From an uncultured Gammaproteobacteria bacterium (lineage in GTDB: Bacteria; Patescibacteriota; Microgenomatia; UBA8517), in NCBI GenBank assembly GCA_964645605.1, contig CAZYCE010000001.1, positions 64,063-128,062 on the forward strand: DNA of 64,000 nt, written 5' to 3'. The notes under the pieces are model-generated. The model worked only from the letters and a program-made list of their open reading frames with translations, did not search any database and was not told the origin of the DNA. A program made the position numbers and the translations under genes. Positions 2,176 through 51,578 of the stretch are shown here, piece by piece; positions within the stretch are counted from its first letter, which is position 1, and every line of letters begins with the position of its first letter.

Positions 2176-4233
2176 ATGTTAGCCATGGAACCTACTTACG
2201 ATCACAAAAAATTTGAGTCTGCCATTTACCACAAATGGGAAAAATCGGCAGCATTTACCCCCAAGCCCGATAAAAACAAAAAACCTTTTTCTATTCTCAT
2301 GCCTCCCCCAAATGCAAGCGACCCCCTTCATATAGGACATGCCAGATTTGTCGCCATTGAAGACGTTTTGATCCGCTATCACAGAATGAAAGGAGATGCT
2401 ACTCTTTGGTTGCCCGGTGCAGATCATGCCGGAGTAGAAACCCAGTTTGTGTTTGAACGTAAACTTCGTGAAAAAGGCCAGTCCCGCTTTGATTTTGATC
2501 GTGAGACTCTTTACAGGATGATTCGGGAGGATGTCCAAAAAAATAAAGGTATCATGGAGGCTCAAATGCGTAAACTTGGCGCGTCTTGCGATTGGACAAG
2601 GTTCAAATTTACACTAGATGCCGATATTGTAAAAGAGGTCTATTCGACCTTTAAAAAACTTTACGACGAAGGTCTTGTTTACCGAGGCGAAAGAATTGTC
2701 AATTATTGCCCAAGGTGCGGAACCGCATATTCGCAACTTGAAGTGGATTACGTCGAGCGAGATGATAAATTTTATTACCTTGACTATGGAAGCATAACCA
2801 TAGCCACTACCCGCCCGGAAACGATATTTGCCGATGTTGCCGTGGCCGTCAACTCCAAAGACGAAAGATTTAAAAAATTGGTAGGATTAACCGCAAAAAT
2901 ACCGCTCATTAACCGCGAAGTTCCGATTATTGCCGACGGTCTTGTTGATATTGCAACGGGAACTGGAGCTTTAAAAATCACGCCTGCTCATGACCCAGCC
3001 GACTTTGAGATCGGACAAAGGCATAAACTTCCCGCAATATCCGTAATTGATGGGTCAGGCAGAATGATTGGCACTCCGGAGAAATATGTCGGAATGAAGG
3101 TAGAGTCAGCTCGCGAAGAGGTTGTAAAAGACTTGATGAAAGCCGGAAAAATATTAAAAGTTGAGGTAATCCACCATACGGTTGGTACCTGCTATAGGGA
3201 CCATAGCACGATAGAGCCGACAATTTCAAAACAGTGGTTTTTGGAGGTTAAACCGTTAGTCAAAAAGTCTATGGAAGCCGTCAAAAAAGGCGAAGTGAAG
3301 TTTGCAGCCAAAAGATATGAGAAAATTGCCAAAAATTGGTATAAAAATCTTAAAGACTGGAATATAAGCCGACAGATTGTTTGGGGTATTCAAATTCCGG
3401 CGTGGAGGTGCGAGAGGTGTCTTGAATGGACCATCACTGACGGCCAGGTCCCAACCACGTGCGATAATTGTAGGCACAATAAATTAGTTCGGGATACGGA
3501 CACTTTTGATACATGGTTTTCCTCAGGACAATGGCCTTTCGCAACCCTTAAAACAACCAAACCGGGAGATTTCGAATATTTTTATCCCACATCCGTTATG
3601 GAAACCGCTTATGACATTCTCCCCTTCTGGATAATTAGAATGATAATGCTGGGCATCTACGTTACAGGTGAAGTTCCTTTCAAGGTAGTTTTGATACATG
3701 GACTGATACGCGATAAACAGGGTCAAAAGATCAGTAAATCAAAAGGTAATGTAATTGACCCGATCGAAATGGCCGACAAATACGGCGCTGATGCTCTCCG
3801 GATGGGTATTCTTTGGGGAGCCTTGGTGGAAAACGATGTTTCCTTATCAGAGGAAAACATCAATGCCCAAAGAAAATTCTGTAATAAGCTTTGGAACGCT
3901 TCCCGTTTTATTTCGGGATTTTCGGCCAAATCAAAAACGAACGAACCCTTTGATAAACATCTACATGAAGTCGTCAAAGAAACTACAAAATATCTTGAAA
4001 AATACAAATTGAATCAGGCTGCGGAGCTTTTATACTCGGAATTTTGGCACTGGTTTTGCGATGAATGCATCGAAAACTCAAAGAAGGGAGAGATCGGAGC
4101 AAAACAGATGAAAAAAGGTTTAGTAACCTTTCTGAAACTGCTTCATCCTTTCATGCCTTTTATCACAGAGCAAATTTGGGATCAGATTGGGGAAAAAGAA
4201 CTTCTGGTTACCTCCTCCTGGCCTACCCCGTAA
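2176..4233 (+). CDS. valS: Valine--tRNA ligase (class I), C-terminally short at 685 aa. It ends near the start of the usual C-terminal tRNA-binding/coiled-coil extension.
   Basis: PPPNASDPLHIGH (HIGH motif), WLPGADHAGVETQ, KISKSKGN (KMSKS motif), and a CP1-region NYCPRCGTAY zinc knuckle. Overall collinearity with ValRS rather than IleRS/LeuRS. Confidence 0.8.
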   Translation: MLAMEPTYDHKKFESAIYHKWEKSAAFTPKPDKNKKPFSILMPPPNASDPLHIGHARFVAIEDVLIRYHRMKGDATLWLPGADHAGVETQFVFERKLREKGQSRFDFDRETLYRMIREDVQKNKGIMEAQMRKLGASCDWTRFKFTLDADIVKEVYSTFKKLYDEGLVYRGERIVNYCPRCGTAYSQLEVDYVERDDKFYYLDYGSITIATTRPETIFADVAVAVNSKDERFKKLVGLTAKIPLINREVPIIADGLVDIATGTGALKITPAHDPADFEIGQRHKLPAISVIDGSGRMIGTPEKYVGMKVESAREEVVKDLMKAGKILKVEVIHHTVGTCYRDHSTIEPTISKQWFLEVKPLVKKSMEAVKKGEVKFAAKRYEKIAKNWYKNLKDWNISRQIVWGIQIPAWRCERCLEWTITDGQVPTTCDNCRHNKLVRDTDTFDTWFSSGQWPFATLKTTKPGDFEYFYPTSVMETAYDILPFWIIRMIMLGIYVTGEVPFKVVLIHGLIRDKQGQKISKSKGNVIDPIEMADKYGADALRMGILWGALVENDVSLSEENINAQRKFCNKLWNASRFISGFSAKSKTNEPFDKHLHEVVKETTKYLEKYKLNQAAELLYSEFWHWFCDECIENSKKGEIGAKQMKKGLVTFLKLLHPFMPFITEQIWDQIGEKELLVTSSWPTP

Positions 4234-6214: not shown

Positions 6215-8854
6215 TTATAAAGAAAGTTTCGCAAAGAGATCACGAACCAGTGTTGTATTATATAGGTAACCGCCGCCATCGGTCAAGGTAAAAGTTGGGT
6301 TGCTGGCCAAAATCTTTGTTGAAGGGTATAAAGTGATACTTACCGGGTAGCCATCAACTCCCGCCTGCTTTCTAAAATAGAGATTGTATTGCGCTATAGA
6401 CTTGTCGATCTTTCCACTCCAACTAAAAGATATTTTTTTTGTCTCCCCAGCCAACACTTCGATAAGTATTCCTATTTCTTTTCGTCCTTTGGCATCCGTT
6501 ACTTCGGGCGTCAATATTTGCGTATTCTGACCGATACTGCTTTCGACTTCAATGTCGGTAACATCCTGAGGAACAAGTAGTCTGATATAAGATTTATACC
6601 TCCCTGAAATACCAAGCTCTGTGTTTGCGGAATTTTGCAAAGTTAAAATTATATTCCTATTTGCTTGCCCATCTTCAATTTTTACAACTATATCTGCCGA
6701 TCTTTTTATAAAATAATTAGATTTATTACAACCAACGTTTGCCTCCACAATACCCAACAAGTCTGAATAGCATGCCCCGCTGCAAACGGGAATAAATACC
6801 GACCCGTCCCAACCAAGGTTGTTTATGGATCTCTGGAAATCCGAATCGTGCAAAAATATTTGTATATGTCTTTCATTTAAACTTTCGTATGCCAGTCTCA
6901 TTGCAGAAAATTTTTGCGGAGATGACAAGCCTCCAATTTTTTCAAGTGATCCCCTTGAGAGAGCCGTTAAAAAACTTGCCTTTTTGTGGGTACCGGGGAA
7001 AAAACCATCCTGTACTTCAGATTGGACACGTTCATATAAATTGCTTGAGTTAATTTCCATATTATAGTCAGACAAAAATACCGGACCGGAAATATCCAAA
7101 AAATTTTTAATTGGGTAAAGATCTATCGAGACAACTCCATCTACTTCTTTATCCATCTCCTTATTTAAAAACCATTCTGCGCGCTTGGCGGATGTTGGAA
7201 AATCGGGGTCCCAATTTGAATCTCGAAACCACCAGTTTGCTTCATTTAAATAGTTTTTTATGGGTGCCGGTGGTTCCACATGGCCATTAAGTTGGCCGTC
7301 TGCCGAATAGATGTCACTAATTGTAAAATCTGAAAGTCTTCCCTTATCAAAAGTCAGAAGACCATATGAACCAATAAAACCTCCGGTTGGACGAAGCTCC
7401 ATATTGTTTTCAAAAAGAATTAAATATGTTTTACTTTTTTCCTCACCCAAAACCTCCGGAAGCTTCCCTGTCATGACAACCATTTGTGAGGTGAGCTGTC
7501 TATAGGTCCCAATATTGATTTTTGATAAAACAAGTCCCGCTAAAAGCGAGCCTTTGTTTTTACTTTTAATACTTCTCTCTTCAAAATCAGATAGTTCGTT
7601 ATAGATCCTTTGCGTCCCCTCCTGAAAACCAGCTAGGACGGTTGAAACCGAGTATGGGTTTTTACTCAAAACGTTGCTAATTAACTCCTCGCCGGTCCTA
7701 ATAAGCGGAATGCTATTTGCGCCGATAACGGAAACTTTACTAAAAGTATCGGAGGCATATTCTGTCTCCTTGTATACCTGCCCAATAAGCGGAACGTGTT
7801 TTAGATAACTGCTTTCAAGTCGCGAGGGCGCTGAGATAGCTTTTACGATATATAGTAAAGCGTGAGCAACTTGGTCGTGTCCTGATCGAAATTGAAGAAA
7901 AGATAAATAAGATAAGCCGGCCGAGACGATCCCGGCAAAAAGAGGAAATAATAATATTATAAGAATGGTTGTCCACAATATTCTTAACTTACGCCGTGGT
8001 GCTTTGTTTGTGTTTACAAGTTTTTTTGTTTCAACGGTAATCTTTTTGGAGACAACCTTTTGGGTTTCCTGATAATGGCTGGGGTTCTTGCTGATCCATT
8101 TATATGTTTCCGTCAGTAGAAATCCAAGATCCCTATTAATGCGATAATTTTCTATACTTTCCGGTAGTTCAATTTCGGCACAGGAATTAATCGATTTTAT
8201 TTTGATATCACCGATGAGTTTAGCGTTGGCTTGCCAAAATACATTGGCTGATGTGTCAGGTCCTATTAAGGATACTTCCCTTCCATACGGTCCAAATGCA
8301 AAAAGCCACTTCACTATTTGTCGAGCCGCGTCATTAACAAAAATCGGATAAAGTAAGTCCCCCACGGGAACGGTATATGTTCTATTATTTATAATTTCAT
8401 TTAAATAATTGCTTATCTTTAAGTTGCTGTCCAAATCTAGGCGGGGCCCCAATAAATCTCCTACATATATTGTTCCAATGTTGTCTGTTAAATTTAAGCG
8501 TCTACTCGAGAGCGCGCCGTAAGCTTCCCTGGGTACTATCAATAATGTTTTTTTGCCATAGGTGTTTGTATTTTTTAAAAATTTCTCAATGTCAATCCAT
8601 GACTTTGTTTTATCTATAAATCCTGCGCAAGAGATAATATAGTTGCAGGCAATATCTTTTCTTAAAGTCCCGTAAGCGATAATACTAAATCTACTTGTTG
8701 CTGCAATGTTTTTCGTCTTATCCCTCCAACCTTTTATATTTTCAGTGATTACATTGACAAAACAGTTATTAGACAGGAGATTTTCCAAAATGTTCACGGC
8801 AAGAAAGTTTGGATCTGAGTATAGACAGACGAGGGATCTTTCGATTGAATTCAT
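6215..8854 (-). CDS. Large (879 aa) membrane protein. N-terminal Rossmann-like (epimerase-like) cytoplasmic domain, one TM segment, and a large extracytoplasmic domain (DUF4012-like, by recollection of similar Patescibacteria proteins).
   Basis: Single long ORF. Hydrophobic segment ILWTTILIILLFPLFAGIVSAGLSYL near residue 290. No recognisable catalytic motif. Confidence 0.4.
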   Translation of the reverse strand: MNSIERSLVCLYSDPNFLAVNILENLLSNNCFVNVITENIKGWRDKTKNIAATSRFSIIAYGTLRKDIACNYIISCAGFIDKTKSWIDIEKFLKNTNTYGKKTLLIVPREAYGALSSRRLNLTDNIGTIYVGDLLGPRLDLDSNLKISNYLNEIINNRTYTVPVGDLLYPIFVNDAARQIVKWLFAFGPYGREVSLIGPDTSANVFWQANAKLIGDIKIKSINSCAEIELPESIENYRINRDLGFLLTETYKWISKNPSHYQETQKVVSKKITVETKKLVNTNKAPRRKLRILWTTILIILLFPLFAGIVSAGLSYLSFLQFRSGHDQVAHALLYIVKAISAPSRLESSYLKHVPLIGQVYKETEYASDTFSKVSVIGANSIPLIRTGEELISNVLSKNPYSVSTVLAGFQEGTQRIYNELSDFEERSIKSKNKGSLLAGLVLSKINIGTYRQLTSQMVVMTGKLPEVLGEEKSKTYLILFENNMELRPTGGFIGSYGLLTFDKGRLSDFTISDIYSADGQLNGHVEPPAPIKNYLNEANWWFRDSNWDPDFPTSAKRAEWFLNKEMDKEVDGVVSIDLYPIKNFLDISGPVFLSDYNMEINSSNLYERVQSEVQDGFFPGTHKKASFLTALSRGSLEKIGGLSSPQKFSAMRLAYESLNERHIQIFLHDSDFQRSINNLGWDGSVFIPVCSGACYSDLLGIVEANVGCNKSNYFIKRSADIVVKIEDGQANRNIILTLQNSANTELGISGRYKSYIRLLVPQDVTDIEVESSIGQNTQILTPEVTDAKGRKEIGILIEVLAGETKKISFSWSGKIDKSIAQYNLYFRKQAGVDGYPVSITLYPSTKILASNPTFTLTDGGGYLYNTTLVRDLFAKLSL

Positions 8855-11161: not shown

Positions 11162-11989
11162 CTATTGTGTTTTTAAACCGAGTCTGGATTTTATCAGATT
11201 AACGCCGGGCGTCAAACTTCCCCATCCTGACATCTGAATTTGTTGCCAAACATTAACAATTGAATAAACAAGCCAGTATAGAGCCAGACCGGAGGGAAGC
11301 CGAAGACCAAATATTAAAGTCATCAAAGGCATCATATATGTCATTGATTTTTGCATGGCTACCTGTGTGTTATCGAGATCGCTTTTGGTCTTTTTGGCAA
11401 TCTTTTGTTCTTCCTTTATATACGGACTTGTTATTTTCACGGACAAAAACTGCGCAAGAGTTGCAAGAATTAGGAATAATCCGGGAAGGCCGAATGAAAT
11501 TCCGGGAATCTTGAACGTGTCCGGTTTGGTTATGTCCATGTAGAAAAATTTGGTATTCAGGCTTTGCCCGTCAGTAAACTTAAGGGGAGGGTAAAGAAGT
11601 TGATTCAGTTTTCCCGAAGCCATATCCTGACCCGACAGAGCGGTTGTGAAAACCTGAAAAAGGGCAATTATAACAATAAATTGTAAAATATAGGGAAGGC
11701 ATCCCGCCATTGGATTAATTTTGTTTTGCTTGTAAAGCTCGGCCTGCGCTTGAGACATTTTCAGTTTGTCGCTTCCGAATTTTTTTCTCAGTTTGGCAAG
11801 CTGCGGTTCCATTTCACGAATCTTTTTCATTGACTTTAAATATGGTTGTGTCAAAGGTCTCAAAATAAAAATTAGGAAAATGCTAAAAAGGATAATCGCA
11901 ACTCCCAAATTTTGCCCAAGATATTTATAAAATAAGATAAGACCGTTGGTTAACGGCTGGACTAAAATTGTTGTAAATATGTTTCCCAT
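11162..11989 (-). CDS. yidC: Membrane protein insertase YidC (short Gram-positive/CPR-type).
   Basis: Five TM helices. Conserved rnpA-yidD-yidC-jag gene order. Confidence 0.75.
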   Translation of the reverse strand: MGNIFTTILVQPLTNGLILFYKYLGQNLGVAIILFSIFLIFILRPLTQPYLKSMKKIREMEPQLAKLRKKFGSDKLKMSQAQAELYKQNKINPMAGCLPYILQFIVIIALFQVFTTALSGQDMASGKLNQLLYPPLKFTDGQSLNTKFFYMDITKPDTFKIPGISFGLPGLFLILATLAQFLSVKITSPYIKEEQKIAKKTKSDLDNTQVAMQKSMTYMMPLMTLIFGLRLPSGLALYWLVYSIVNVWQQIQMSGWGSLTPGVNLIKSRLGLKTQ

Positions 11990-16682: not shown

Positions 16683-19427
16683 TTACGGTATGTAACCACA
16701 GTAATTGAATTCATCTGAACAGTTTCTTTTAATATTTTTAGGTATATACGGTGGCTCCATGATTATTCCTCCTATAAATTCATAATGCAAATGAGGTCCC
16801 GTTCCTTGGGTTCCTGAAAGTCCTATTGGTTGTCCAAAGCCGATTTCTCCGTCTTTGGCGAAAACAACAGAAAGATGTGCATACCTTACGGTTACCTGTT
16901 TTCCTCCACAATCGGAAGAAACGTCAACATAATTTGGCCCGTAGGCGGCAACTCCCCTAACAACATTTGCTACGCCGGTAGAAGTTGATTGGACGTGTGT
17001 TCCTACGGGTACGGCAATATCAATAGCCTCATATCCTCGATGACTATAACCACCGTTTGGTGTCTGTGTAATCGGATAACTACCCAATATCGGCCAACCG
17101 GCAGGACACGTATCTGGGGGGTTTCCGATTTTGATTGATGTCGTTGCGGCCGTTTCCTGTTGACCACCATCGGCCGTGTTGGCGCTCACAGTGACAGTAT
17201 TTATTACAAGAGAGTCTTTATACTCACCGCCTGAATAATTTGACTCGTATGAGTAGGAGTATGGACCACTGGTTACAATTTCACCGGGAATATCTGAGGC
17301 AGACGGGGTGTTTGAAGGACATTTCTTGTTTCCCGCAGCAGAAATTATTTGACAATCATCTTTTATTGAGATGTTTGTCAAAGTGCTCTTTTTTGCATTG
17401 ACGGTAACATTATAGGAAACTTTAAGAGGGAGACTTGAATTTTGAAACGGTCCGGAAGGACTGACGTCTTTTTGTACATGTATATAAGGATTCGTGCTCG
17501 TTCCCGCGGTGGCAGTAGGTGGTACTATGTACGCTCCTGAGTTGATAATAAAAAGTATAAAAGCCACAAGAATTGGAGTAACCAATACAGTGATAAATAT
17601 AGGCATAAAGATGGGTGCGATAGCCAATTTACCCAAGGTAACAAAGAAACCTCCAATGCTTGTGCCAACAGCCCCTAAACTAACACTTCCTGCTGACACA
17701 GCAGCAGAAACTCCAAAAGCCCCAAGTCCGGCAATAATTCCCACAACAGGCCCTGCAATCAAAAAGGCTCCAAGACCTATGACGGCACCAATTATGTAGT
17801 CTGCATTCTTTTTAATCCATGGCCCCACCTTTTCCAGAATTTTTCCAAAAACTGCTCCGATAATTAATCCCGCAATTGTGCCGATAACGGGAATTATTCC
17901 AGTTCCAACCGTTGCCCCAACTTTTGCGGCCGCCGCTTGCATACCAAGTTTACTAAGTAAAGAAGACGCACCTCTAGCGATAGCGTTTCCCAGTGTGATA
18001 TTCAAACTTTTTCCTGCGACTGCTTTGGCAACGGCCCCTTCAGTTATTCCCTCCGCAACAACGGCACTCTCGGCAACAATCGCACCTTCCGTGGCAATCA
18101 TCTCGGTTGCAACCGGGGCGACAGCCTGAATGCCTACATTTATACCTAATCGCCCGGCGATATTTGTTATTAATGGGGCATAACCAGGGAAAGCTGTGGT
18201 GATAAGTTTTCCAAAAGAACTGGTACCAACATATTCAAAGTTGGTTTGTAAACCCAAAAACGGGGCTATGCTGTCAAATGCTTGAGAATTGGCAAAACCG
18301 GAGATTTTTCCAAGTGATCCAGTTGTAGTCAAAGATTTTGTTTTTGACAATGCCAACACCTTAAGCTTTGATTCGGCAATCCCCTTTACACTCTCAGTTA
18401 CCGGAGAATTAAAACCGTCGGAGATATCTCCTTCCTGGAAAGAAAAGGAATTATTCTGAAGTTGACCCAGTTTAATTGTAAAAGCTCCGTCAGATTTTTC
18501 AGTGGATAAAATATACTGCTGCTCGACCGGACCCAACACCGTGTTTGTAATATTTTCGCCGAGGGTTCTTAGGAGAACTGTTCTGTAAAGGTTGTCATTA
18601 CTTTCTGAAAACACCGTGAGCATGGATGTTGTTTTTACCAACTCTCTTTGTGCTACGGAACTTAGATCGGGTATCAGTTCAGGAGCCTTTGCGGTCGCAG
18701 CAAAAACTCCCACGGGGACAGGTTTTTGGGCCGGATTAATAAGAGCTTGGGTAGTATCTACCGCAATAATTTGGGACAAGGGTTCTAATATTTCTTTCGG
18801 AATATCCGGATTTTTCTGAGATATGAGTTGCGAAAGTTTTTGAGAAAAGAGCTGAGAATCATTCTTGGCAATATCCACTAGTTTTTGTTCGTTTTCAGAA
18901 AAAATAATATCCGGAACTTTTGTAGCGGGTACAGCATACAAGGTTTTGTCGCCAATCTCTGTCAATACATTCTTTTGGATATCTTTGGGGGCGGCTTGAA
19001 TAATTTTGGCGCGCGATTCATATATCTCCTGCTGTTTATTTATAGATTTTCTTACAGCTTCTTCAGCTTTTGTTTTTGTTTCAAGACTTTCTGTCTCACG
19101 TTTCCGTCTTTCGAGTTCCTGCAACGCGCGTGCTTCCTTGTCCGGCACGTTTGCTTCAACCGGCTTTTCCTCGTTTTCGGATTCTCCCACAAGTTTCTCT
19201 ACAGCAAGTTCTGCCTTTTTAATATTTTCAATATCTTTATCGGACTTTATGCGGATGCCGGTTAGCCTGTAAACAAAATCTATGAAATCGCTTCTGTTTT
19301 TCCAATTAAATTCTCCAGAAACATATGGCTTATCAGAAGAATATATAGCGTCTTCAGGGAAGAAATGGGCAAAGGCAAACCTTAGATAATTTACATTTTC
19401 GGAGGTCAAGCTGATCTTATTTGCCAT
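16683..19427 (-). CDS. Giant (914 aa) membrane protein. Cytoplasmic coiled-coil N-terminus, Gly/Ala-rich multi-helix membrane region, and a C-terminal extracellular M23 (LytM-type) metallopeptidase domain. Candidate cell-wall-remodelling component of the secretion/pilus apparatus.
   Basis: C-terminal GYSHRGYEAIDIAVPVGT… and GPHLHYEF (HxH) motifs are characteristic of M23 peptidases. A glycine-zipper-like hydrophobic block spans residues ~430-620. Directly adjacent to the VirB4-like ATPase. Confidence 0.6.
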   Translation of the reverse strand: MANKISLTSENVNYLRFAFAHFFPEDAIYSSDKPYVSGEFNWKNRSDFIDFVYRLTGIRIKSDKDIENIKKAELAVEKLVGESENEEKPVEANVPDKEARALQELERRKRETESLETKTKAEEAVRKSINKQQEIYESRAKIIQAAPKDIQKNVLTEIGDKTLYAVPATKVPDIIFSENEQKLVDIAKNDSQLFSQKLSQLISQKNPDIPKEILEPLSQIIAVDTTQALINPAQKPVPVGVFAATAKAPELIPDLSSVAQRELVKTTSMLTVFSESNDNLYRTVLLRTLGENITNTVLGPVEQQYILSTEKSDGAFTIKLGQLQNNSFSFQEGDISDGFNSPVTESVKGIAESKLKVLALSKTKSLTTTGSLGKISGFANSQAFDSIAPFLGLQTNFEYVGTSSFGKLITTAFPGYAPLITNIAGRLGINVGIQAVAPVATEMIATEGAIVAESAVVAEGITEGAVAKAVAGKSLNITLGNAIARGASSLLSKLGMQAAAAKVGATVGTGIIPVIGTIAGLIIGAVFGKILEKVGPWIKKNADYIIGAVIGLGAFLIAGPVVGIIAGLGAFGVSAAVSAGSVSLGAVGTSIGGFFVTLGKLAIAPIFMPIFITVLVTPILVAFILFIINSGAYIVPPTATAGTSTNPYIHVQKDVSPSGPFQNSSLPLKVSYNVTVNAKKSTLTNISIKDDCQIISAAGNKKCPSNTPSASDIPGEIVTSGPYSYSYESNYSGGEYKDSLVINTVTVSANTADGGQQETAATTSIKIGNPPDTCPAGWPILGSYPITQTPNGGYSHRGYEAIDIAVPVGTHVQSTSTGVANVVRGVAAYGPNYVDVSSDCGGKQVTVRYAHLSVVFAKDGEIGFGQPIGLSGTQGTGPHLHYEFIGGIIMEPPYIPKNIKRNCSDEFNYCGYIP

Positions 19428-36962: not shown

Positions 36963-38834
36963 ATGCTAAGAATACAAAGTGCCAAAGTTACGGCTTCCCC
37001 CGGAGGTACCGGTTGGGTGCAAATTCACGGATTTTCGCCTGCAGAATCTGATCAGGTAAAAACCAGAGGACAGCTTTTTATTGTGATTGCCTCTCGAAAC
37101 GGAAACGAGGGTATTGAAGCCATTTCTTTTGAAAGGAAAATTGTCGGAGAAATAAGAGAGAGTTATTATAATTCAGGCGATGCGAAGGCTTTTGATGCTC
37201 TTTCGGGAGCCGTCCGAAAGGTAGCCGTAGAGACTAAAACTGCAGGGGAGGATGTTGAAATTGCCGGCTGCGCTTTTGCCGACGGAGTTTTATATTCCTC
37301 GGCTTTTGGCGGCAGTAGTGTGATTGTCAGTCGGGACGGATCTTTTGCATCAATTTTGGAAAGTGAATCGGATGTTATTGCCGCATCGGGTTTCCCGAAA
37401 GAGGGAGATGTGGTTATTGTTGGGACAAAGGCTTTTTTTGAAAAAGTAACGCTCGGGGATCTTAAAAAAGCCCTGATAAGTAAAAATCCGGAAGCGGCTG
37501 TTGAGGAGCTGACACCGCTTGTTTACGGCGGGGTTGAAATAGGAACTTCAGGGGCGGTAATTATTAAGTTCGAAGAAACTCCGGAAATTCGTCAACCAGC
37601 GCAAGTTACCATTCCGGCAGAGAAAGTTGCGGAACCGAAAATCGATTTGGCAAAAAAGTTTTCCGGTTTTTGGAGCGGAATAGTAAAAAAAGTTCCCAGG
37701 AGAAATATATATATAAAACCGGAAATGGAGGATCAGGCGACTTCCCAAAGCAAAAAACTAACTCTTTCTGTGGGAGTTATCCTCCTTCTCATATTGGCGG
37801 TAAGCGTAGGCTTTGGTATCAGACAAAAAAGATTAAATGATGTTAAAAAAGAATATCAGGGACTATTAACTCAAGCCACAAACGAAGTGGATCAAGCAAT
37901 TAGTCTGGCCAGCTCGAACCCCGAGGAGTCAAGGCAACTTTTTCTAGACAGTGAACAAAAGTTGGTACAAATACAAGCCTTGAAAGTCAAGGATGTAAAA
38001 ATTGAAGAACTACAGAAAAAAATTGAGGACAGTCGGGCTGCGGTTTTGGGTGAATATAGCGTGAATCCTGAGCTTTTCTTGGATCTTGGCCTCCTTTCCT
38101 CAGGATTTAAAGGTGATGCGATCTCTTCATCGGGCGGAAGCCTTTACGTTCTTGATAAAACCGGATCCAGGGTTGTTGGTATCGCCCTTGATACCAAAAA
38201 GAGCAAGGTGGTTTCCGGCCCCACAGTGATCGATAGCCCTCAGGATCTGGCATCATATGAAGACAGCGTTTTTGTTCTGCTATCCGACGGAATTTATTTG
38301 ACAGAGTCCACCAAAACGAAAGTTATCGATAAAACTTGGGGCGGGGAAGCTTTGATATGCGCTTTTGGAGGAAACCTTTACGTTCTTGATAAAACCGGAA
38401 ATGCCATTTATAGATACGCGGGGAGCTCCGGAAACACTTTTGGGACTCAGCAACCCTGGCTTTCAAGCTCGACTCAGGCGAATTTCTCAAACGCAGTTTC
38501 CTGGGGAATAAATGGGGCAGTATATGTTCTTTATCCCAACTCCAAAATCTTGAAATACAGTCTCGGTTCTCCTCAAAGTTTCTCTTTGTCGGGGGTAACG
38601 CCGGAAATAGGAAACGTAGACGCAATCTATGCGGATCCTGATAATACCTACGTTTATTTACTTGATAAAGCAGGTAATCGTATAGTGGTGATTGACAAAA
38701 ACGGAAAATATAGGGCTCAATACATCAGTGACCAGATTTCATCCGCTACTAGGATAGTTGCCTCCGAAGCTGAAAAGAAAATTATTTTTCTCACAGGGGA
38801 GAAGCTTCTTTCAATCGAGATAAAACATCTTTAA
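36963..38834 (+). CDS. Bitopic membrane protein (623 aa). Cytoplasmic N-domain, central TM helix, and C-terminal extracytoplasmic β-propeller-like repeats.
   Basis: TM LTLSVGVILLLILAVSVGFGI near residue 265. Repeated …G(G/N)SLYVLDKTGxxVxxI… units in the C-terminal half. Confidence 0.45.
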   Translation: MLRIQSAKVTASPGGTGWVQIHGFSPAESDQVKTRGQLFIVIASRNGNEGIEAISFERKIVGEIRESYYNSGDAKAFDALSGAVRKVAVETKTAGEDVEIAGCAFADGVLYSSAFGGSSVIVSRDGSFASILESESDVIAASGFPKEGDVVIVGTKAFFEKVTLGDLKKALISKNPEAAVEELTPLVYGGVEIGTSGAVIIKFEETPEIRQPAQVTIPAEKVAEPKIDLAKKFSGFWSGIVKKVPRRNIYIKPEMEDQATSQSKKLTLSVGVILLLILAVSVGFGIRQKRLNDVKKEYQGLLTQATNEVDQAISLASSNPEESRQLFLDSEQKLVQIQALKVKDVKIEELQKKIEDSRAAVLGEYSVNPELFLDLGLLSSGFKGDAISSSGGSLYVLDKTGSRVVGIALDTKKSKVVSGPTVIDSPQDLASYEDSVFVLLSDGIYLTESTKTKVIDKTWGGEALICAFGGNLYVLDKTGNAIYRYAGSSGNTFGTQQPWLSSSTQANFSNAVSWGINGAVYVLYPNSKILKYSLGSPQSFSLSGVTPEIGNVDAIYADPDNTYVYLLDKAGNRIVVIDKNGKYRAQYISDQISSATRIVASEAEKKIIFLTGEKLLSIEIKHL

Positions 38835-38870
38835 AAAAGACGTCCGGTCTTCATGTTAAAATAGGCTGAT

Positions 38871-39305
38871 ATGAATATCGCGAATAAAAGAGCCAGGTTT
38901 GAATATGAATTAACGGGCGAGGGGGTCGAAGCCGGAATCTCTCTTTTGGGGGCTGAGGCCAAATCGGTACGGGAGGGAAGGGTCGATATAAGTCAAGCCG
39001 CAGTCAGGATTTTGAACGACGAAATGTATCTGATCAATGCCAATATTCCCGTTTCTGGCATGCAAAAATACAGTTCGACCAGAATAAGAAAACTCCTTCT
39101 CCATAGGGGGGAAATTTTGTCGCTTATTACAAAAATGAAGCAAAAAAGATTGCAAATTGTGCCTATCAGGGTGTATAATAAAGGCCGCTTAATTAAGATT
39201 TACCTTGAGCTTGGTAAGAGCAAGCATAGGTTTGAGAAAAAGGAGGCAATTAAGCGCCACGACATAAACCGAGACATCGAGAAGGAATTTAAAGGTTCGA
39301 TTTAA
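38871..39305 (+). CDS. smpB: SsrA-binding protein SmpB.
   Basis: MNIANKRARFEY…GAEAKSVREGRVDISQA…LLLHRGEI motifs. Followed immediately by tmRNA. Confidence 0.85.
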   Translation: MNIANKRARFEYELTGEGVEAGISLLGAEAKSVREGRVDISQAAVRILNDEMYLINANIPVSGMQKYSSTRIRKLLLHRGEILSLITKMKQKRLQIVPIRVYNKGRLIKIYLELGKSKHRFEKKEAIKRHDINRDIEKEFKGSI

Positions 39306-39308
39306 GTC

Positions 39309-39675
39309 GGGGACGATCGGTCTCGACGGAATGCTCTTTACAATACTGCAAGCCAAGTTTGATCGACACTTGTCAAAAGAGATCAAAAAATAAAAGCTAG
39401 GAATTCATTCCAAGCCCAACCTAACTACGCAGTAGCGTACGCTTAAGTTGCATCCTTAGATTTGATTCTCGGTTGAATCAAAAGGGTGTAAACCAATCCG
39501 AGATGCTTTTTAAAACTTAATGATTTAGAGTTTTGAAATTAAGCCTAAATAAATCTTACGTTCAGCAGCTGTAAGTTTGCTTAAACTGAACGAAAATTTA
39601 AAAAATTTACTAAGCTTGTAGAGGTTTTGTAGAAAGTTTTTTCGGACGCGGGTTCGATTCCCGCCGTCTCCACAG
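39309..39675 (+). ncRNA. ssrA: Transfer-messenger RNA (tmRNA, ssrA). Predicted tag reading frame ends …AQPNYAVAYA-stop.
   Basis: 5' GGGGACGATCGGTCTCGACGG matches the tmRNA acceptor/D-analog consensus. 3' GGACGCGGGTTCGATTCCCGCCGTCTCCA is the tRNA-like T-arm/acceptor. The internal ORF GCC CAA CCT AAC TAC GCA GTA GCG TAC GCT TAA (39414-39446) resembles ANDENYALAA-type tags. Location just after smpB. Confidence 0.8.
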
Positions 39676-39676
39676 A

Positions 39677-39706
39677 CAAAAAACCGCTATGCCGGCGGGT
39701 TTTTTG
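39677..39706 (+). terminator. Rho-independent terminator after tmRNA (A-tract / stem / T-tract, potentially bidirectional).
   Basis: AAAAAACCGCtatgccGGCGGGTTTTTT. Confidence 0.5.
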
Positions 39707-39720
39707 GTGGAAAAATATGA

Positions 39721-40395
39721 TTGATGGGCATTCTTGACCTTGTTTTTCCGAAAACGTGTCTTGGGTGCGGACGCGGCGGAAGATACTTATGCCAAGCCTG
39801 TATCGATAAAACTCCGAAGGCTGATGCAATCCGCCCGTATTGTAAACACCCCTCCATTGACTGAACTACACACGTAAATTGTCAAAAGAAGTTCGGGATA
39901 GACGGCTTGACCACAATCTGGGGTTATGAGGGAGTTATCAGGAAGGCGATACTGTCGTTAAAATATAAATATGCCACGGAAGTGGCGAATGAAATTTCTG
40001 ATTACTTAATTATTTCACTGGTGAGCAGGGTGATGCCTTCTGTTCAATGTTTAGCTCCGGTTCCGATCCATTGGCATAGACAAAATACAAGGGGATTTAA
40101 TCAATCGGCTGAAATCGGTAAGCTCGTAGTAGCCTCAATAGGGTGTAAATTTACTCAGGATTTATTGATAAAAACCGTTTCAACGGCTTCTCAAACCGAA
40201 CTGGGCAGAAAAGACCGCCGCCGAATTTACGGGGTGTTTTTTCCGTTAATTCCATATATAAATCATCTTTGGTAAATCTGAAATCCGTTATTATTTTTGA
40301 TGATGTTTTACTATCGGTTCAACACTAATGGAGGTGGAAAAAGTTTTAAAAAGAGGGGGCGTGGAAAAAGTTTGGGGACTGACGATTGCAAGATA
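39721..40395 (+). pseudogene. comFC: comFC (ComF family phosphoribosyltransferase-like competence protein) disrupted by one in-frame TGA and two frameshifts.
   Basis: Frame 1, 39721-39861: LMGILDLVFPKTCLGCG…YLCQACID (ComF zinc-finger N-terminus), then TGA at 39862-39864. Same frame resumes at 39907-40275: IWGYEGVIRKAILSLKYKY…LAPVPIHWHRQNTRGFNQSAEI… -1 frame, ~40224-40325: NLRGVF…KSVIIFDDVL. Third frame to 40395: TIGSTLMEVEKVLKRGGVEKVWGLTIAR-stop. The shifts coincide with a CCGCCGCCG repeat and a T-homopolymer. Confidence 0.6.
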
Positions 40396-40401
40396 ACCGT
40401 G

Positions 40402-40483
40402 CGGTAGGTACAGGGGTCGAACCTGTTAGAGCTTGCGCTCACGAGTTTTCAAGACTCGCGCGTTACCGTCCCGCCCACCTACC
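40402..40483 (-). tRNA. tRNA-Ser (anticodon TGA, reads UCA/UCN), long variable arm.
   Basis: Minus-strand sequence GGTAGGTGG…CGAGT-CTTGAAA-ACTCG…long extra arm…ACAGGTTCGACCCCTGT-ACCTACC-G. Anticodon loop CT-TGA-AA. Confidence 0.8.
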
Positions 40484-40489
40484 ACTGAG

Positions 40490-40575
40490 CGGAGGGGGTG
40501 AGATTTGAACTCACGCGAGCCTTGCGGCTCAGAGGTTTAGCGAACCTCCGCAATGGACCGCTATGCGACCCCTCC
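40490..40575 (-). tRNA. tRNA-Ser (anticodon GCT, reads AGY), long variable arm. Only 6 nt from the preceding tRNA-Ser.
   Basis: Minus-strand GGAGGGGTCGCATAGCGGTCCATTGCG-GAGGT-TCGCTAA-ACCTC-TGAGCCGCAAGGCTCGC-GTGAGTTCAAATCTCAC-CCCCTCC-G. Anticodon GCT. Confidence 0.75.
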
Positions 40576-41562
40576 ATATTTGTATTTATTTAGCCTCTGA
40601 TTACTACTACCAACAATATTGAGATATTTTTCTATCTCATGGCTATTATACAGCCAAACCTTCTTATTCACTACGTTCTTGATAATTTTCGGGTGAAACT
40701 TTAATTCTTTGAGTGTTTCGTAAACAAAGGTCAAAAGAGGAACGGAATAGTTGGTGAAGTTGGCTTTTGGGTATATGTATATTTTCCCATTTACTTTATA
40801 CCTGTGGATGAAGATTCCACCATCAGTATCCATCAAACCACGCAAACAGCGAATTTTATATTTTTGGTTCGATTTTATCCAATCTGGTACGTCCACTTGG
40901 TTTTTAACCTTATTACCCGGGACTAATCCAAGTTTTGTTAGAAGTTTGGTTAAGTTGGCTCCGTTATAATAAATTTCCAATGCATTGGCATTATTTCTTT
41001 TCCTGACTTTGGGCTCGTGTCCAAACAAAGATTTGCATAGTTTTACTACATAGTGCGAATAATCCAAATCCTTAATACTGTTTAATGTTATGCGTATTTG
41101 TAATCTTCCCATGCTCCCATCACCAAGCATAATCCCCATGAACTCAGCAAGGTTCGAAGAGCGTTTCGGTGTGTAAAATGTAGCGATTGGTGATATTGAC
41201 CCTGATTTTCTGAGGATTTCTAGAGTTTTTAATCCTCCTTTTTGTCTACCTTCTTTTGTACCTGGATTTCCATATTTTTGTTTGTAGGCAATCCCACCTC
41301 GTTTTCCAATCCGCGATCTATTCGTTTTCCATCTGTTTTCCAATACCCCAACCTTTTCAGGTAAAATGACATTAAACTTGCTGCCTAATATAAGTACGGC
41401 ATTTTTTGAAATTGACATCTTTTCATTTTTCCAATCAGTAAAACTTCTAGGGGAAACACTTACCAAATTAGCCAATTTATTGGTGCCTAAACCGCTTTTT
41501 TGAATCACTGTTTTGAGGAATATCTTTTGATGGTTGGGCAAGAATTTTAGGTGATTTTCCAT
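40561..41562 (-). CDS. Free-standing LAGLIDADG-family homing endonuclease (two LAGLIDADG-like motifs) with an N-terminal HTH-like region. Its 3' end overlaps tRNA-Ser(GCT) by ~15 nt.
   Basis: FMGIMLGDGSMGRLQIRITL and LRGLMDTDGGIFIH motifs are separated by ~100 aa, as in double-motif LAGLIDADG enzymes. The TAG stop lies inside the tRNA 5' end. Confidence 0.65.
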   Translation of the reverse strand: MENHLKFLPNHQKIFLKTVIQKSGLGTNKLANLVSVSPRSFTDWKNEKMSISKNAVLILGSKFNVILPEKVGVLENRWKTNRSRIGKRGGIAYKQKYGNPGTKEGRQKGGLKTLEILRKSGSISPIATFYTPKRSSNLAEFMGIMLGDGSMGRLQIRITLNSIKDLDYSHYVVKLCKSLFGHEPKVRKRNNANALEIYYNGANLTKLLTKLGLVPGNKVKNQVDVPDWIKSNQKYKIRCLRGLMDTDGGIFIHRYKVNGKIYIYPKANFTNYSVPLLTFVYETLKELKFHPKIIKNVVNKKVWLYNSHEIEKYLNIVGSSNQRLNKYKYGGVA

Positions 41563-41623
41563 ATCCGCTAGACGACACCTCCATGATATACTTTTCCAGA
41601 TATAAAATGTATACTACGCATGT

Positions 41624-42160
41624 ATGGAATCTGCCAATAGCACATTAAATGTTGAGCCACAGGCGGTGGTTGTCAGGCGTGAACCTGAACGCGATTTGGT
41701 TACCTGGACGGCGCCAGCGCGGCCATTTAAAAGGTACGGCAGAAAGTTTTATGTAACTATTTTTTCATTTGTAGGAATAATCAGCATAATTCTTTTTATA
41801 GCCGAAGGTGCCATACCGGTAGTGCTCTTAGTTTCACTTATCTTTTTGTTTTATGTTCTTTCTACGGTTTCACCGGAGAATATTGAGTATAAAATAACCA
41901 ATAAGGGAGTCAAAATCGCAGGCAAGGAAACACCCTGGCAAAATATAATCAGGTTTTGTTTTTTGTCAAAAACAGGAGGCGAAGTTTTGGTTTTTGATGC
42001 GGCAACGTTTCCCGGAAGAATAGAGCTTGTCATAAATCCCGAGGACAAAGATAGATTGAAAAAAGAAATTTCTGCATACACTCCTTATGAAGAAATTAAG
42101 CCTTCTTTTTTGGATAAGATTGTGGACTGGGTTGTTAAAAAGCTGCCGGAGAGTGAGTAG
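41624..42160 (+). CDS. Membrane hypothetical protein (178 aa, two TM helices).
   Basis: Hydrophobic hairpin FYVTIFSFVGIISIILFIAEGAIPVVLLVSLIFLFYVL. Confidence 0.4.
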   Translation: MESANSTLNVEPQAVVVRREPERDLVTWTAPARPFKRYGRKFYVTIFSFVGIISIILFIAEGAIPVVLLVSLIFLFYVLSTVSPENIEYKITNKGVKIAGKETPWQNIIRFCFLSKTGGEVLVFDAATFPGRIELVINPEDKDRLKKEISAYTPYEEIKPSFLDKIVDWVVKKLPESE

Positions 42161-42182
42161 GCACAACTCCGAATAAGCATCT

Positions 42183-42255
42183 GCACCCGTAGCTTAACGG
42201 ATAGAGTAGGAGCTTGCGGAGCTCTTGGTCCCAGTCCGATTCTGGGCGGGTGCAC
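42183..42255 (+). tRNA. tRNA-like gene, best read as tRNA-Arg (anticodon GCG). The T-loop (TCCGATT) is non-canonical.
   Basis: GCACCCG-TA-GCTT-AACGGATA-GAGT-A-GGAGC-TTGCGGA-GCTCT-TGGT-CCCAG-TCCGATT-CTGGG-CGGGTGC-A-CC. Seven-bp acceptor, anticodon loop TT-GCG-GA. Confidence 0.45.
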
Positions 42256-42259
42256 CTAA

Positions 42260-42341
42260 GGAGGATGGGCAGGACGGTAATGCGTTGGTTTCGAAAACCA
42301 ATTCTCGTAAGGGATAGCAGGTTCGACTCCTGCATCCTCCG
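42260..42341 (+). tRNA. tRNA-Ser (anticodon CGA, reads UCG), long variable arm.
   Basis: GGAGGAT…TTGGT-TTCGAAA-ACCAA…GCAGGTTCGACTCCTGC-ATCCTCC-G. Anticodon loop TT-CGA-AA. Confidence 0.75.
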
Positions 42342-42461
42342 CTCGTCGGAACTAAACATTGCTGGTCGTTTTTCAAAACTGAGAGTTTTGAAAAAGATTG
42401 CAAGTTTGTTCCTTCTCTCGGAATTGTTGTACAATTTCGGTTGGAAACATAGATACAAGAG

Positions 42462-42908
42462 ATGGATACAAAAATAAATCAACAAATATTTATAGGAGGC
42501 GCAGTGGTTTTCAAAGATAACCGTGGCAAGCGCCAGTATTTGCTGGTTAAAACGAAAATAGATAGTAACTGGGAAATTCCCAAAGTAACGGTGAGAAGGG
42601 GAGAATCCTCTGTGCGTGCCGTGATTAGACTTACGGGAGAGCAGGGGGGGATTACGGCCAGAATTTTGGAAGAAGCGGGTAGATATTCGGTAACCACGAT
42701 AATAAACGGCAATACCATTCCCCAGAAATATTATTATTACTTGATGCTTCAAAAAGGAGGCCCTGGAGAAATGATCGGATTTCAAGATTACAAATGGATG
42801 GAATTTCCAAATGCCTTGAAAAAGATTGATTCCGAGAAAGAGAAAGAGATGCTCAAAAGTGCAAAAAAGGTATTGAAGGAGTGGGAATCCACACATAGGG
42901 TTAAATAA
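42462..42908 (+). CDS. Nudix hydrolase family protein.
   Basis: Nudix-box-like RGESSVRAVIRLTGEQGGI (GX5EX7REUXEEXGU pattern). Confidence 0.55.
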   Translation: MDTKINQQIFIGGAVVFKDNRGKRQYLLVKTKIDSNWEIPKVTVRRGESSVRAVIRLTGEQGGITARILEEAGRYSVTTIINGNTIPQKYYYYLMLQKGGPGEMIGFQDYKWMEFPNALKKIDSEKEKEMLKSAKKVLKEWESTHRVK

Positions 42909-42913
42909 AGCCA

Positions 42914-43390
42914 ATGTTGCGCGAGTTTTCTTCTGGCGGAGTAGTCTACAAGAAAGAAAAAGGAGAGGTTCTGTGGGTAGTAAGGATGACTGCTGCCAGT
43001 AAACTTTTTCCCAAAACACACTGGATGCTTCCAAAGGGTTGGTTGGATGATGCGGGAGATGGTGTCCCCGGGCCAATGGCCTCGGGCACGTTAAAGGCTG
43101 ACGAAAAAACGCTTCAGGCAACTGCGGTCCGTGAAGTTGTGGAAGAAACGGGAGTTAAGGCTGAAATTATTAAAAAAATTGGGACGCTTAAATATGTTTA
43201 TACCCATCCTGAAAGGGGTAAAACTTTAAAATTTGTCACTTACTTCCTAATGGAGTGGAAATCCGACCTACCAGGAGGTTTTGACGGAGAAACCTCAGAA
43301 ATTGCCTGGCTTCCGTATGGGGAAGCTTATAAAAGACTTTCTTTTGGTAAAGAGAAGGAAGTGCTGAAAAAAGCAAACGCTCTTCTTTGA
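42914..43390 (+). CDS. Nudix hydrolase family protein (second, tandem).
   Basis: Nudix box …EKTLQATAVREVVEETGV…. Confidence 0.6.
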   Translation: MLREFSSGGVVYKKEKGEVLWVVRMTAASKLFPKTHWMLPKGWLDDAGDGVPGPMASGTLKADEKTLQATAVREVVEETGVKAEIIKKIGTLKYVYTHPERGKTLKFVTYFLMEWKSDLPGGFDGETSEIAWLPYGEAYKRLSFGKEKEVLKKANALL

Positions 43391-43407
43391 TATAATACAA
43401 GTTCAAT

Positions 43408-43492
43408 GGAGGAGTCGCCTAGTGGCCTATGGCACGGGTTTGGAAAACCCGGACCCGAAAGGGTCTCGTGAGTTCGAATCTCACCTCCTCCG
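43408..43492 (+). tRNA. tRNA-Ser (anticodon GGA, reads UCC/UCU), long variable arm.
   Basis: GGAGGAGTCGCCTAGTGGCCTATGGCA-CGGGT-TTGGAAA-ACCCG-GACCCGAAAGGGTCTC-GTGAGTTCGAATCTCAC-CTCCTCC-G. Confidence 0.8.
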
Positions 43493-43533
43493 CATTTTGT
43501 AATGATGACAATATATAAATGATATAATCGCCT

Positions 43534-51157: not shown

Positions 51158-51311
51158 GAGAAGAGTATACCACTAAAGTAATTAATAATTAATAATTTAT
51201 AATTTACAACTTATAAGTTTTAAAAGCGCGAAAACTAGGTTATAATAGCTTCAGAGAATAGTAATTATTACTTGTAAATTATTGATTATAAATTCTCTTG
51301 TTCTTTTATAT

Positions 51312-51578
51312 TCCCCTGTAGCTCAATGGTAGAGCGAGATCCTGTCTGGTTTGGCAGCTCTTGACAGTAATGTCGGGATGAAAATCAGGCTAATTCGGGG
51401 AACCCCTCCTTCGTATAAAACTACGGAAGGGTAATCCCGAGCTAAATCACAAAAGTGTAAATGTGTAGAGACTATATACCTGACACCCTTTGGGGTGATA
51501 AGATAGTCCGATCCTTTTGGTAACAGAAGGGCTATTGTAAGATCGAGGTTGGAGGTTCGAGTCCTCCCGGGGGAGCCA
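51312..51578 (+). tRNA. tRNA-Asn (anticodon GTT) interrupted in the anticodon loop by a ~192-nt group I intron. Exons are 51312-51345 and 51538-51575(+CCA to 51578).
   Basis: 5' exon TCCCCTG-TA-GCTC-AATGGTA-GAGC-G-AGATC-CTGT. 3' exon TAA-GATCG-AGGTT-GGAGG-TTCGAGT-CCTCC-CGGGGGA-G-CCA. Reconstituted loop CTGTTAA matches the E. coli tRNA-Asn loop. G73 discriminator and acceptor resemble bacterial tRNA-Asn. Confidence 0.7.
51346..51537 (+). ncRNA. Group I self-splicing intron (catalytic core R/S elements present) inserted between anticodon positions 35 and 36 of tRNA-Asn.
   Basis: GTGTAGAGACTATA (R-like, cf. UCAGAGACUA) and AAGATAGTCCG (S-like, cf. AAGAUAUAGUCC) form P7 (GACTA/TAGTC). The intron ends with G (omega-G) right before exon TAA. 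The 5' exon ends in T (U•G in P1). Confidence 0.7.

Follow-up and report, generated by a model that had tools for sequence, protein, structure and literature searches.

A free-standing LAGLIDADG endonuclease gene that runs into tRNA-Ser(GCU) belongs to a large family for which serine tRNA genes are the probable homing sites

Why should a gene for a LAGLIDADG protein stand free on a bacterial chromosome and end inside a tRNA gene? The question is raised by a stretch of 64,000 nucleotides (nt), hereafter the window, from contig CAZYCE010000001.1 (assembly GCA_964645605.1, positions 64,063 to 128,062 of the forward strand), deposited as an uncultured Gammaproteobacteria bacterium and placed by GTDB in the Patescibacteriota (Microgenomatia; UBA8517). 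It holds an open reading frame (ORF) of 333 amino acids (aa) that runs into tRNA-Ser(gct). An earlier note on this DNA read the ORF as a monomeric homing endonuclease outside any intron or intein, and suggested that it might be domesticated or stranded, might mark a decayed intron, or might be functionally linked to a group I intron in tRNA-Asn. Comparison with related loci points to a functional, active free-standing LAGLIDADG homing endonuclease gene, one of a large family with tRNA-Ser genes as homing sites, that carries a replacement tRNA along with it; we assign this reading a probability of about 0.65. Members of the family occur sporadically, keep to one kind of site and evolve under purifying selection.

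The layout of the locus is best explained as a mobile unit of ~1.1 kb, made up of a short promoter, a ~20-nt tRNA-Ser relic, the ORF and a complete tRNA-Ser(GCU). This unit sits exactly where close relatives have only a different allele of tRNA-Ser(gct), here called class A, with its promoter, and its flanks are host-like. Read in gene direction, the insert consists of 13 nt with no feature assigned, the AAAAGTATATCAT box, the GGAGGTGTCGTCTAGCGGAT leader, the ORF and the complete tRNA-Ser(gct). The endonuclease gene is intergenic, between a membrane-protein gene and the tRNA. No integrase or recombinase was found in the 1.12-kb insert, which contains the endonuclease ORF and the tRNA only. The ORF does end inside tRNA-Ser(GCT), as the earlier note had it: its last 15 nt overlap the tRNA, and its TAG stop, as read from the sequence, is tRNA nt 13-15. 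The features are as follows; related loci are referred to by L numbers.

40487..41608, minus strand: the whole inserted or replaced segment, ~1.12 kb, delimited by homology breakpoints against L145, the right one shared with L010
40561..41562, minus strand: helix-turn-helix (HTH)-LAGLIDADG endonuclease ORF, 333 aa, ATG start (ORF list, Pfam, fold model, homologues)
41377..41532, minus strand: N-terminal HTH region, aa 11-62, four short helices in the model
41113..41151, minus strand: first LAGLIDADG motif, LAEFMGIMLGDGS, with catalytic D148 at 41119-41121, at the C-terminal end of helix 136-148
40816..40848, minus strand: second LAGLIDADG motif, CLRGLMDTDGG, with catalytic D247 at 40822-40824, at the C-terminal end of helix 233-246
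40489-40575, minus strand: tRNA-Ser(gct), the ORF-linked allele, here called class B (ARAGORN; Rfam, 48.7 bits)
40561..40575, minus strand: ORF/tRNA overlap of 15 nt, in which the last four codons and the TAG stop are tRNA nt 1-15
41563..41582, minus strand: leader of 20 nt, GGAGGTGTCGTCTAGCGGAT, that directly precedes the ATG and is a relic of the first nucleotides (about nt 1-20) of a tRNA-Ser
41583..41595, minus strand: -10-like box AAAAGTATATCAT, directly upstream of the relic and conserved in relatives
40401..40483, minus strand: tRNA-Ser(tga) (ARAGORN and Rfam), directly after tRNA-Ser(gct), a host-type flank that forms the 3' boundary of the insert
41624..42160, plus strand: divergent gene for a 178-aa membrane protein, which tracks SmpB identity, a host-type flank that forms the 5' boundary of the insert
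For comparison, empty loci of the L145/L010 type: class A tRNA-Ser(gct) locus, which includes GGAGGATATGCCGAGCGGCTAAGGCAAAGGTTTGC

The 333-aa ORF was confirmed as a real two-domain, two-motif monomeric LAGLIDADG protein with an N-terminal HTH. In the Pfam search, a check that the earlier note had proposed, LAGLIDADG_3 (PF14528) scored 25.9 bits against a cut-off of 22.5 and LAGLIDADG_2 (PF03161) 25.9 bits against a cut-off of 25; both passed, marginally, and the WhiA-type profile PF14527 stayed below its cut-off (19.4 against 23.2 bits). Intein endonuclease domains of NCBIfam also match the protein. Because a sequence search against solved structures returned no match, a comparison of folds was needed. 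An AlphaFold model built on 30 homologues (pLDDT 88) has the predicted double alpha-beta-beta-alpha-beta-beta-alpha fold of the LAGLIDADG superfamily, and its best match among solved structures in Foldseek is the archaeal intron enzyme I-Tsp061I (E 1.5e-10), with further matches to intein endonuclease domains, I-AniI, I-DmoI, WhiA, I-OnuI-type enzymes and the bI3 maturase. The catalytic acidic residues, whose loss the earlier note had named as grounds for abandoning its reading, are retained: D148 and D247 are invariant in 30/30 relatives and in all 66 of a larger set. In the same 66 relatives G143, G147, D148 and G149 of the first motif and R241, G242, L243, T246, D247 and G248 of the second show no exception. 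The HTH is marked by a weak PezA/XRE-type profile match over aa 16-72 and, on homologues, by precomputed matches to HTH_3, HTH_19 and HTH_28.

The endonuclease ORF lies outside any intron or intein, as had been claimed: it has its own start and stop between the 20-nt leader and the tRNA, and Rfam detected no ribozyme or intron over 40400-41700. The PADLOC defence-system models gave no match, and the window contains no paralogue of the ORF. Its GC content is 36%, against 40.5% for the window. The AAAAGTATATCAT box, kept as AAAAGTATATAAT in L017, L001 and L069, whose host backgrounds differ, is the probable promoter of the ORF. A simple two-hexamer promoter consensus scan made no call at this box, nor did it find an internal tRNA promoter in the last codons of the ORF; A/T-rich -10-like strings are present in some homologues and are not convincing as a tRNA promoter.

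To sample relatives without bias, loci were anchored on SmpB, which lies 1.3 kb from the endonuclease gene in the window, with one genome per species. Only one of these 55 loci (L017) has a family member, and in 33 of the 55 a tRNA-Ser(gct) is present in the neighbourhood without the endonuclease. One such locus from Woesebacteria UBA8517 (L010; SmpB 84%) aligns to window positions 38001-40547 and 41609-42345 with a gap of ~1 kb between them, and a five-way alignment showed the identical gap against L012, L015 and L019. Closer relatives, reached through homologues of the neighbouring 178-aa protein, were all empty (L145, 85% aa identity in this protein; L146 and L147, 82%; L148 and L149, 79%). 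L145 provides the closest empty site. There, the match to the window is exact across tRNA-Ser(tga) as far as 40486 and picks up again at 41609, a right breakpoint identical to that against L010, and ~140 nt comprising the class A tRNA-Ser(gct) and its promoter stand where the window has ~1.12 kb; the 178-aa gene is 81% identical to that of L145 at the nucleotide level.

Within one tRNA cluster, each site can be filled or empty independently of the others. L084 (SmpB 78% to the window) lacks a family member at its gct site, but a member of the gga clade precedes its tRNA-Ser(gga); in L093 a family member lies between the gct and tga tRNAs. As a separate observation, the 72.8-kb contig of L009, the closest SmpB relative, breaks off precisely at the tRNA-Ser(gct) 5' end (11608-11695), the position of the insertion in the window; heterogeneity in the population could have interrupted the assembly there.

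Is the position beside a serine tRNA peculiar to this genome? A word-indexed search returned 462 full-length relatives of the 333-aa protein, and an exhaustive search over 50%-identity clusters returned 318 at E <1e-30, 1053 at <1e-10 and 2045 at <1e-3. In the first three homologue contexts (66, 55 and 51% identity) the gene abuts a same-strand tRNA-Ser(gct), with overlaps of 15, 0 and 9 nt. Scanning metagenomes with the family alignment added 80 further loci at 32-66% identity. The junction was then counted over 75 non-redundant homologue loci with enough downstream DNA (32-77% identity). A same-strand tRNA-Ser begins within 120 nt downstream of the end of protein homology in 64 of the 75, and slightly beyond 120 nt in two more (66/75). 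Another two have tRNA-Arg(gcg) downstream, and in these a tRNA-Ser ends 25 nt before the ORF. The remaining seven include three with a convergent tRNA-Ser 100-200 nt off and one with a tRNA-Ser 5' fragment. The ORF/tRNA-Ser junction is thus far beyond chance.

The association extends to the isoacceptors gct, gga, tga, cga and act, and the protein clades sort by tRNA-Ser isoacceptor in a catalytic-core tree built by neighbour joining. The last conserved residue falls exactly at tRNA +1 in many loci, and the stop codon of homologues is found anywhere between 37 nt upstream of the tRNA and 52 nt inside it. Short forms of the family that lack the HTH show the same adjacency. No account of a tRNA-Ser-linked LAGLIDADG family was found in the literature searched, coverage of which was partial, and its novelty is not proven; the family is large and apparently undescribed.

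Several further observations were made on family members. In the exception to the rule represented by L088/L089 (L088 ORF 2524-3519), tRNA-Arg(gcg) lies 37 nt downstream and the tRNA-Ser 3' end ~25 nt upstream. On GC-rich contigs (59-63% GC; L110, L119, L126, L139/L140) members still adjoin tRNA-Ser, and the family is therefore not confined to AT-rich genomes of the candidate phyla radiation (CPR). Eleven loci (L004, L066, L071, L074, L075, L077, L080, L085, L091, L107 and L133) share a conserved TTGAC-N17-TTAGnAT motif ~10-50 nt upstream of the ORF, with the core TTCGGGTTTTRTTAG, that ends 5-8 nt before the ATG; this suggests that the sub-clade has a dedicated promoter and a nearly leaderless mRNA in place of the tRNA-like leader. 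L006 has two small ORFs with GIY-YIG domains, at 2372-2617 (81 aa) and 8501-8788 (95 aa), in the same SmpB/tRNA neighbourhood as its LAGLIDADG gene, which may represent a second homing-endonuclease-like kind at this locus.

The mark of an interrupted tRNA gene is found on the other side of the ORF. The 20-nt leader GGAGGTGTCGTCTAGCGGAT matches a real tRNA-Ser 5' end at 17 of 20 positions (shuffled sequences reached 15 at most), and with the 5' end of the downstream tRNA it forms an imperfect direct repeat (15/22 positions). In 14 gct-clade loci a TATAAT box is followed at once by a homologous leader that runs up to the ATG; the leader of L072, GGAGGATATGCCAAGCAGAT, matches class A at 17/20. 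Clades other than this one have longer and cleaner relics: stretches of 24-26 nt with their own upstream promoter occur in L082, L083, L116, L097, L109 and L123. In L082 an ordinary tRNA promoter and spacer come first, then GGAGGAGTCGCATAGCTGGTCTATTG, then a second promoter and the ORF, and GGAGGAGTCGCATAGCTGGTCTATTG is identical (20/20) to a tRNA-Ser found elsewhere in the data set and differs from the tRNA linked to the L082 ORF. Relic end-points fall at about tRNA nt 19-25, within the D-loop or the 3' part of the D-stem, and the relics are generally nearer to some other tRNA-Ser allele than to the tRNA after the ORF. Both the end-points and the mismatch with the linked tRNA are expected if the unit entered a resident tRNA-Ser gene there and supplied a whole tRNA downstream. 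The tRNA-Ser 5' fragment just upstream of the ORF therefore indicates that the endonuclease gene marks an interrupted tRNA gene.

Two details of relic-bearing loci are recorded here. The opposite strand of L072 carries, at 3283-3307 and ~45 nt upstream of the 5' relic, a 3'-terminal piece (25 nt) of a tRNA-Ser of the class A type. In the short-form, HTH-less loci L131 (about 3935-3990), L128, L130 and L135, the D-arm relic GGTCTAGTGCA upstream of the ORF is followed 12-20 nt later by an inverted copy, a potential hairpin or palindromic binding site.

Selection on the protein was estimated from closer pairs elsewhere in the family because synonymous sites are saturated in the window's own pairs. 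In six pairs with estimable, though nearly saturated, synonymous divergence, the ratio of nonsynonymous to synonymous substitution rates (dN/dS) was 0.09-0.19. The history of the endonuclease is discordant with that of host genes, a modest signal from few taxa: L017 and L001 share 70% identity in the endonuclease, 63% in SmpB and 57% in the neighbour protein, and the window and L004 share 55%, 70% and 66%, respectively. Decay is also seen. L134 is a 5'-truncated remnant that keeps only the second LAGLIDADG domain, beside tRNA-Ser(gct), and L125 and L142 are apparently truncated or frameshifted. Taken together, sporadic occupancy, selection, discordance and remnants form the pattern of invasion, maintenance and decay expected of homing endonuclease genes.

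The tRNA that follows the ORF has a history of its own. Compared with the uniform class A gene (GGAGGATATGCCGAGCGGCTAAGGCA...) of 12 close relatives that lack the endonuclease, the window's tRNA-Ser(gct) is 63-75% identical; compared with the endonuclease-linked tRNAs of L017, L001 and L004 it is 83-91% identical. Its neighbours behave differently: against L145, tRNA-Ser(gct) is only about 71-75% identical, as opposed to 100% for tga (74 nt available) and 97% for gga, and tRNA-Ser(tga) is 93% identical to that of L009, L010 and L016. Among close relatives, a class B tRNA is present at 3 of 3 endonuclease-bearing loci and at 1 of 17 loci without the gene, with the caveat that more distant lineages also have class-B-like tRNA-Ser(gct) genes with no endonuclease attached. 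The identity of neighbouring protein genes follows that of SmpB, and hence of the host, and not that of the endonuclease. Given this and the divergent gct allele, the endonuclease gene and the tRNA seem to have come in together. The evidence on co-conversion of flanking markers is mixed: the linked gct allele is foreign to the host lineage, yet mosaic alleles are also present at neighbouring tRNAs free of endonuclease.

Allele exchange is in fact general at the Ser/Arg tRNA cluster, whatever its driver. When window positions 40401-43493 were compared with L145, L146, L148, L010 and L014-L021, every tRNA of the cluster proved to be a two-allele mosaic: cga is 100% identical to L148 and 71% to L145, gga 97% to L145 and 73% to L010, and Arg-gcg 100% to L146 and 79% to L145. 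Past conversions or anticodon switching may have left this mosaic as a footprint. The class A tRNA-Ser(gct) itself (L010 11631-11718, L145 81-166 and others) has A at position 8 in place of the near-universal U (GGAGGAT-A-T-GCC..., by the ARAGORN delimitation), and scores 37-43 bits in Rfam against 48.7 for the window's class B. Beside the cluster, a ComF-like gene (zinc ribbon and phosphoribosyltransferase; 39721-40275) has an in-frame stop after codon 47. It is intact, at about 224 aa, in L003, L146 and L148, and the interrupted copy is either a pseudogene or a sequencing error.

How might such a unit spread? In the mechanism that we propose, the enzyme would cut both DNA strands of an unoccupied tRNA-Ser gene within its D-arm, at about nt 19-25, and the break would be repaired from an occupied copy, with the neighbouring tRNA-Ser(tga) and the upstream gene serving as homology. 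The endonuclease gene would thereby be copied in together with the donor's tRNA allele, from DNA that probably reached the recipient by uptake. The donor allele would keep the essential tRNA function and presumably escape cutting. The ORF and the tRNA are probably co-transcribed and separated by RNase P, a cut that would strip the stop codon from the window's mRNA because the stop lies inside the tRNA. Carried to its full extent, the scheme would be a natural form of 'cleave-and-rescue', in which the enzyme cuts the resident essential tRNA-Ser gene in its D-arm and spreads linked to a diverged, cleavage-resistant tRNA-Ser, needing neither intron nor intein, with repeated invasions and losses driving mosaic tRNA turnover across the Ser/Arg cluster. 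We regard this fuller version as possible but tentative.

A number of observations weigh against an active homing gene. We infer cleavage, and place its target site solely from where the relics end. The flanking DNA of the closest empty site (L145) is ~19% different. An exact look-up of the neighbouring 178-aa protein returned two contigs, both occupied, and thus no strain-level empty site, and near-identical endonuclease copies in different host backgrounds were not seen. Given the flank divergence and the lack of near-identical copies, this invasion must be an old one, and any ongoing mobility is putative. Other tRNAs of the cluster (cga, gga and Arg-gcg) are two-allele mosaics among relatives with no endonuclease beside them, and replacement of tRNA alleles therefore needs no such gene today. 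A special 'resistant' D-arm of the GTCGCATAG type in linked tRNAs was tried as a candidate and rejected (23/64 linked against 64/222 unlinked, p = 0.28), after which only the gct-site association among close relatives was retained. Finally, strong purifying selection and the conserved HTH also fit a DNA-binding role that benefits the host.

That last point leads to the alternative of domestication, in which a LAGLIDADG/HTH protein, WhiA-like in spirit, binds the tRNA-Ser gene or its promoter, regulates or protects it, and is inherited vertically with the tRNA. The conserved N-terminal HTH, a dN/dS of 0.1-0.2, the fixed position beside one kind of gene, the presence of WhiA among the fold matches and the synteny conserved in L001, L004 and L006 all fit such a role. 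Against it, 54 of the 55 related species representatives keep the tRNA cluster but lack the gene, as do the closest relatives; the gene tree is at odds with host genes, and a truncated remnant is known. Both catalytic Asp are invariant (66/66), whereas they are lost in WhiA; the WhiA-type Pfam match is below cut-off, and the HTH sits at the opposite end of the protein. The suggestion of the earlier note that the gene is domesticated is thus unlikely. Slightly less probable still is that the ORF is passive cargo in a tRNA cluster that acts as a recombination hot spot, its alleles swapped by ordinary homologous recombination after DNA uptake. Mosaic alleles at all five cluster tRNAs with no endonuclease nearby, the ComF-like competence gene adjoining the cluster and the lack of any documented recent transfer speak for it, but cargo of this kind leaves unexplained the intact active site and low dN/dS in hundreds of diverged members, the constant 5'-side position at tRNA-Ser and not other tRNAs, the tracking of isoacceptors by protein clades, and the tRNA-Ser 5' relic before the ORF.

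The relic might instead suggest that an intron or integrative element once occupied a tRNA-Ser gene and has left the ORF behind, stranded and decaying, and integrative elements do commonly split and restore tRNA genes. We consider this quite improbable: the ORF is intact and under purifying selection, no ribozyme was detected, the 1.12-kb insert has neither an integrase nor room for one, and the downstream tRNA is complete and not merely a 3' exon. What survives of the decayed intron envisaged by the earlier note is that the gene does mark an interrupted tRNA gene, through a 5' fragment that had escaped notice; the missing ribozyme and the complete tRNA oppose the rest. The proposed link to tRNA-Asn fared worst. 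The window contains, 9.7 kb away, a group I intron without an internal ORF (51232-51530; Rfam 66 bits), for which the protein might act in trans as a maturase or homing enzyme, and maturases are known among LAGLIDADG proteins, with I-AniI and the bI3 maturase among the fold matches. Yet L010 keeps the intron-bearing tRNA, at 89% identity, with no endonuclease at its tRNA-Ser locus; none of the family members was found beside tRNA-Asn or a group I intron, and the rule of the family is adjacency to intron-less tRNA-Ser genes. A functional link is therefore very improbable. The intron itself interrupts the anticodon loop of the GTT (Asn) tRNA, at about 51305-51577, and its orthologue in L010 is at 18790-19090.

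Homing endonucleases normally spare their host by hiding in self-splicing introns or inteins. A homing endonuclease gene of the kind favoured here appears to have found a third solution, in which a tRNA gene is interrupted and a full replacement copy is brought along, specifically at serine tRNA genes and in hundreds of lineages, among small-genome uncultivated bacteria and some GC-rich ones. If cleavage takes place as proposed, the family would represent a new class of homing site and a new strategy of persistence, and would provide a mechanism for the horizontal replacement of essential tRNA genes as well as evidence for DNA exchange among CPR bacteria. It would also offer many natural HTH-LAGLIDADG scaffolds with predictable targets, tRNA-Ser genes, that could be useful for meganuclease work. 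For annotation, the family explains these ORFs that run into tRNA genes, and it warns that tRNA-Ser alleles in these genomes may depart from the species tree.

The unit was compared with several known systems. WhiA has a C-terminal HTH and a degenerate active site, and is a conserved core gene. The window's protein resembles it in being bacterial and free-standing and in combining a LAGLIDADG scaffold with an HTH, but the HTH is N-terminal, both catalytic Asp are invariant and the gene is sporadic. Integrative elements of tRNA genes rely on integrases, measure many kb and most often insert at the 3' end of the tRNA. Like them, the window's unit interrupts a resident tRNA, supplies a full-length one and leaves a fragment at the other end; unlike them, it is 1.1 kb long, has no recombinase, leaves the 5' end behind and replaces the whole tRNA. 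In synthetic 'cleave and rescue' drives, which use engineered Cas9 in insects, a nuclease cuts an essential gene and is linked to a resistant functional copy. The window's unit would share the logic of such a drive, with the resistance of the tRNA and the cleavage of the resident gene both putative here.

The fold, the two-motif monomer and a highly conserved structural-RNA gene as target, putative in the window's case, are shared with I-Tsp061I, I-DmoI and the rRNA-intron enzymes of CPR bacteria. The last of these also share the host group, CPR/Patescibacteria, with the window's gene, and the survey of CPR rRNA insertions mentions no tRNA (PMC11270868). The rRNA-intron enzymes sit in self-splicing introns and the RNA is restored by splicing, whereas in the window a complete tRNA follows the ORF instead; the additional N-terminal HTH belongs to the window's family and is not a feature of intron-encoded enzymes. 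As in the 'intronless homing' of the T4 seg and mob genes, an intergenic gene adjoins a conserved, here putative, target gene, and does so family-wide. T4 SegB is a free-standing GIY-YIG homing endonuclease in a phage tRNA gene cluster (PMC2330249). It is like the window's gene in being free-standing among tRNA genes. Part of the site that it recognises is a conserved motif of tRNA genes, and when it homes, neighbouring tRNA genes travel with it and tRNA-region markers of the recipient are displaced (PMC2330249). SegB is not known to have a 5' tRNA relic or an ORF-tRNA fusion, and it recognises a T-psi-C motif common to many tRNAs, whereas the window's family is LAGLIDADG, resides on cellular chromosomes and keeps to tRNA-Ser, where the D-arm is the apparent point of insertion. 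T4 SegB is the nearest functional analogue of the window's gene, and its nearest structural relatives are the intron-encoded LAGLIDADG enzymes.

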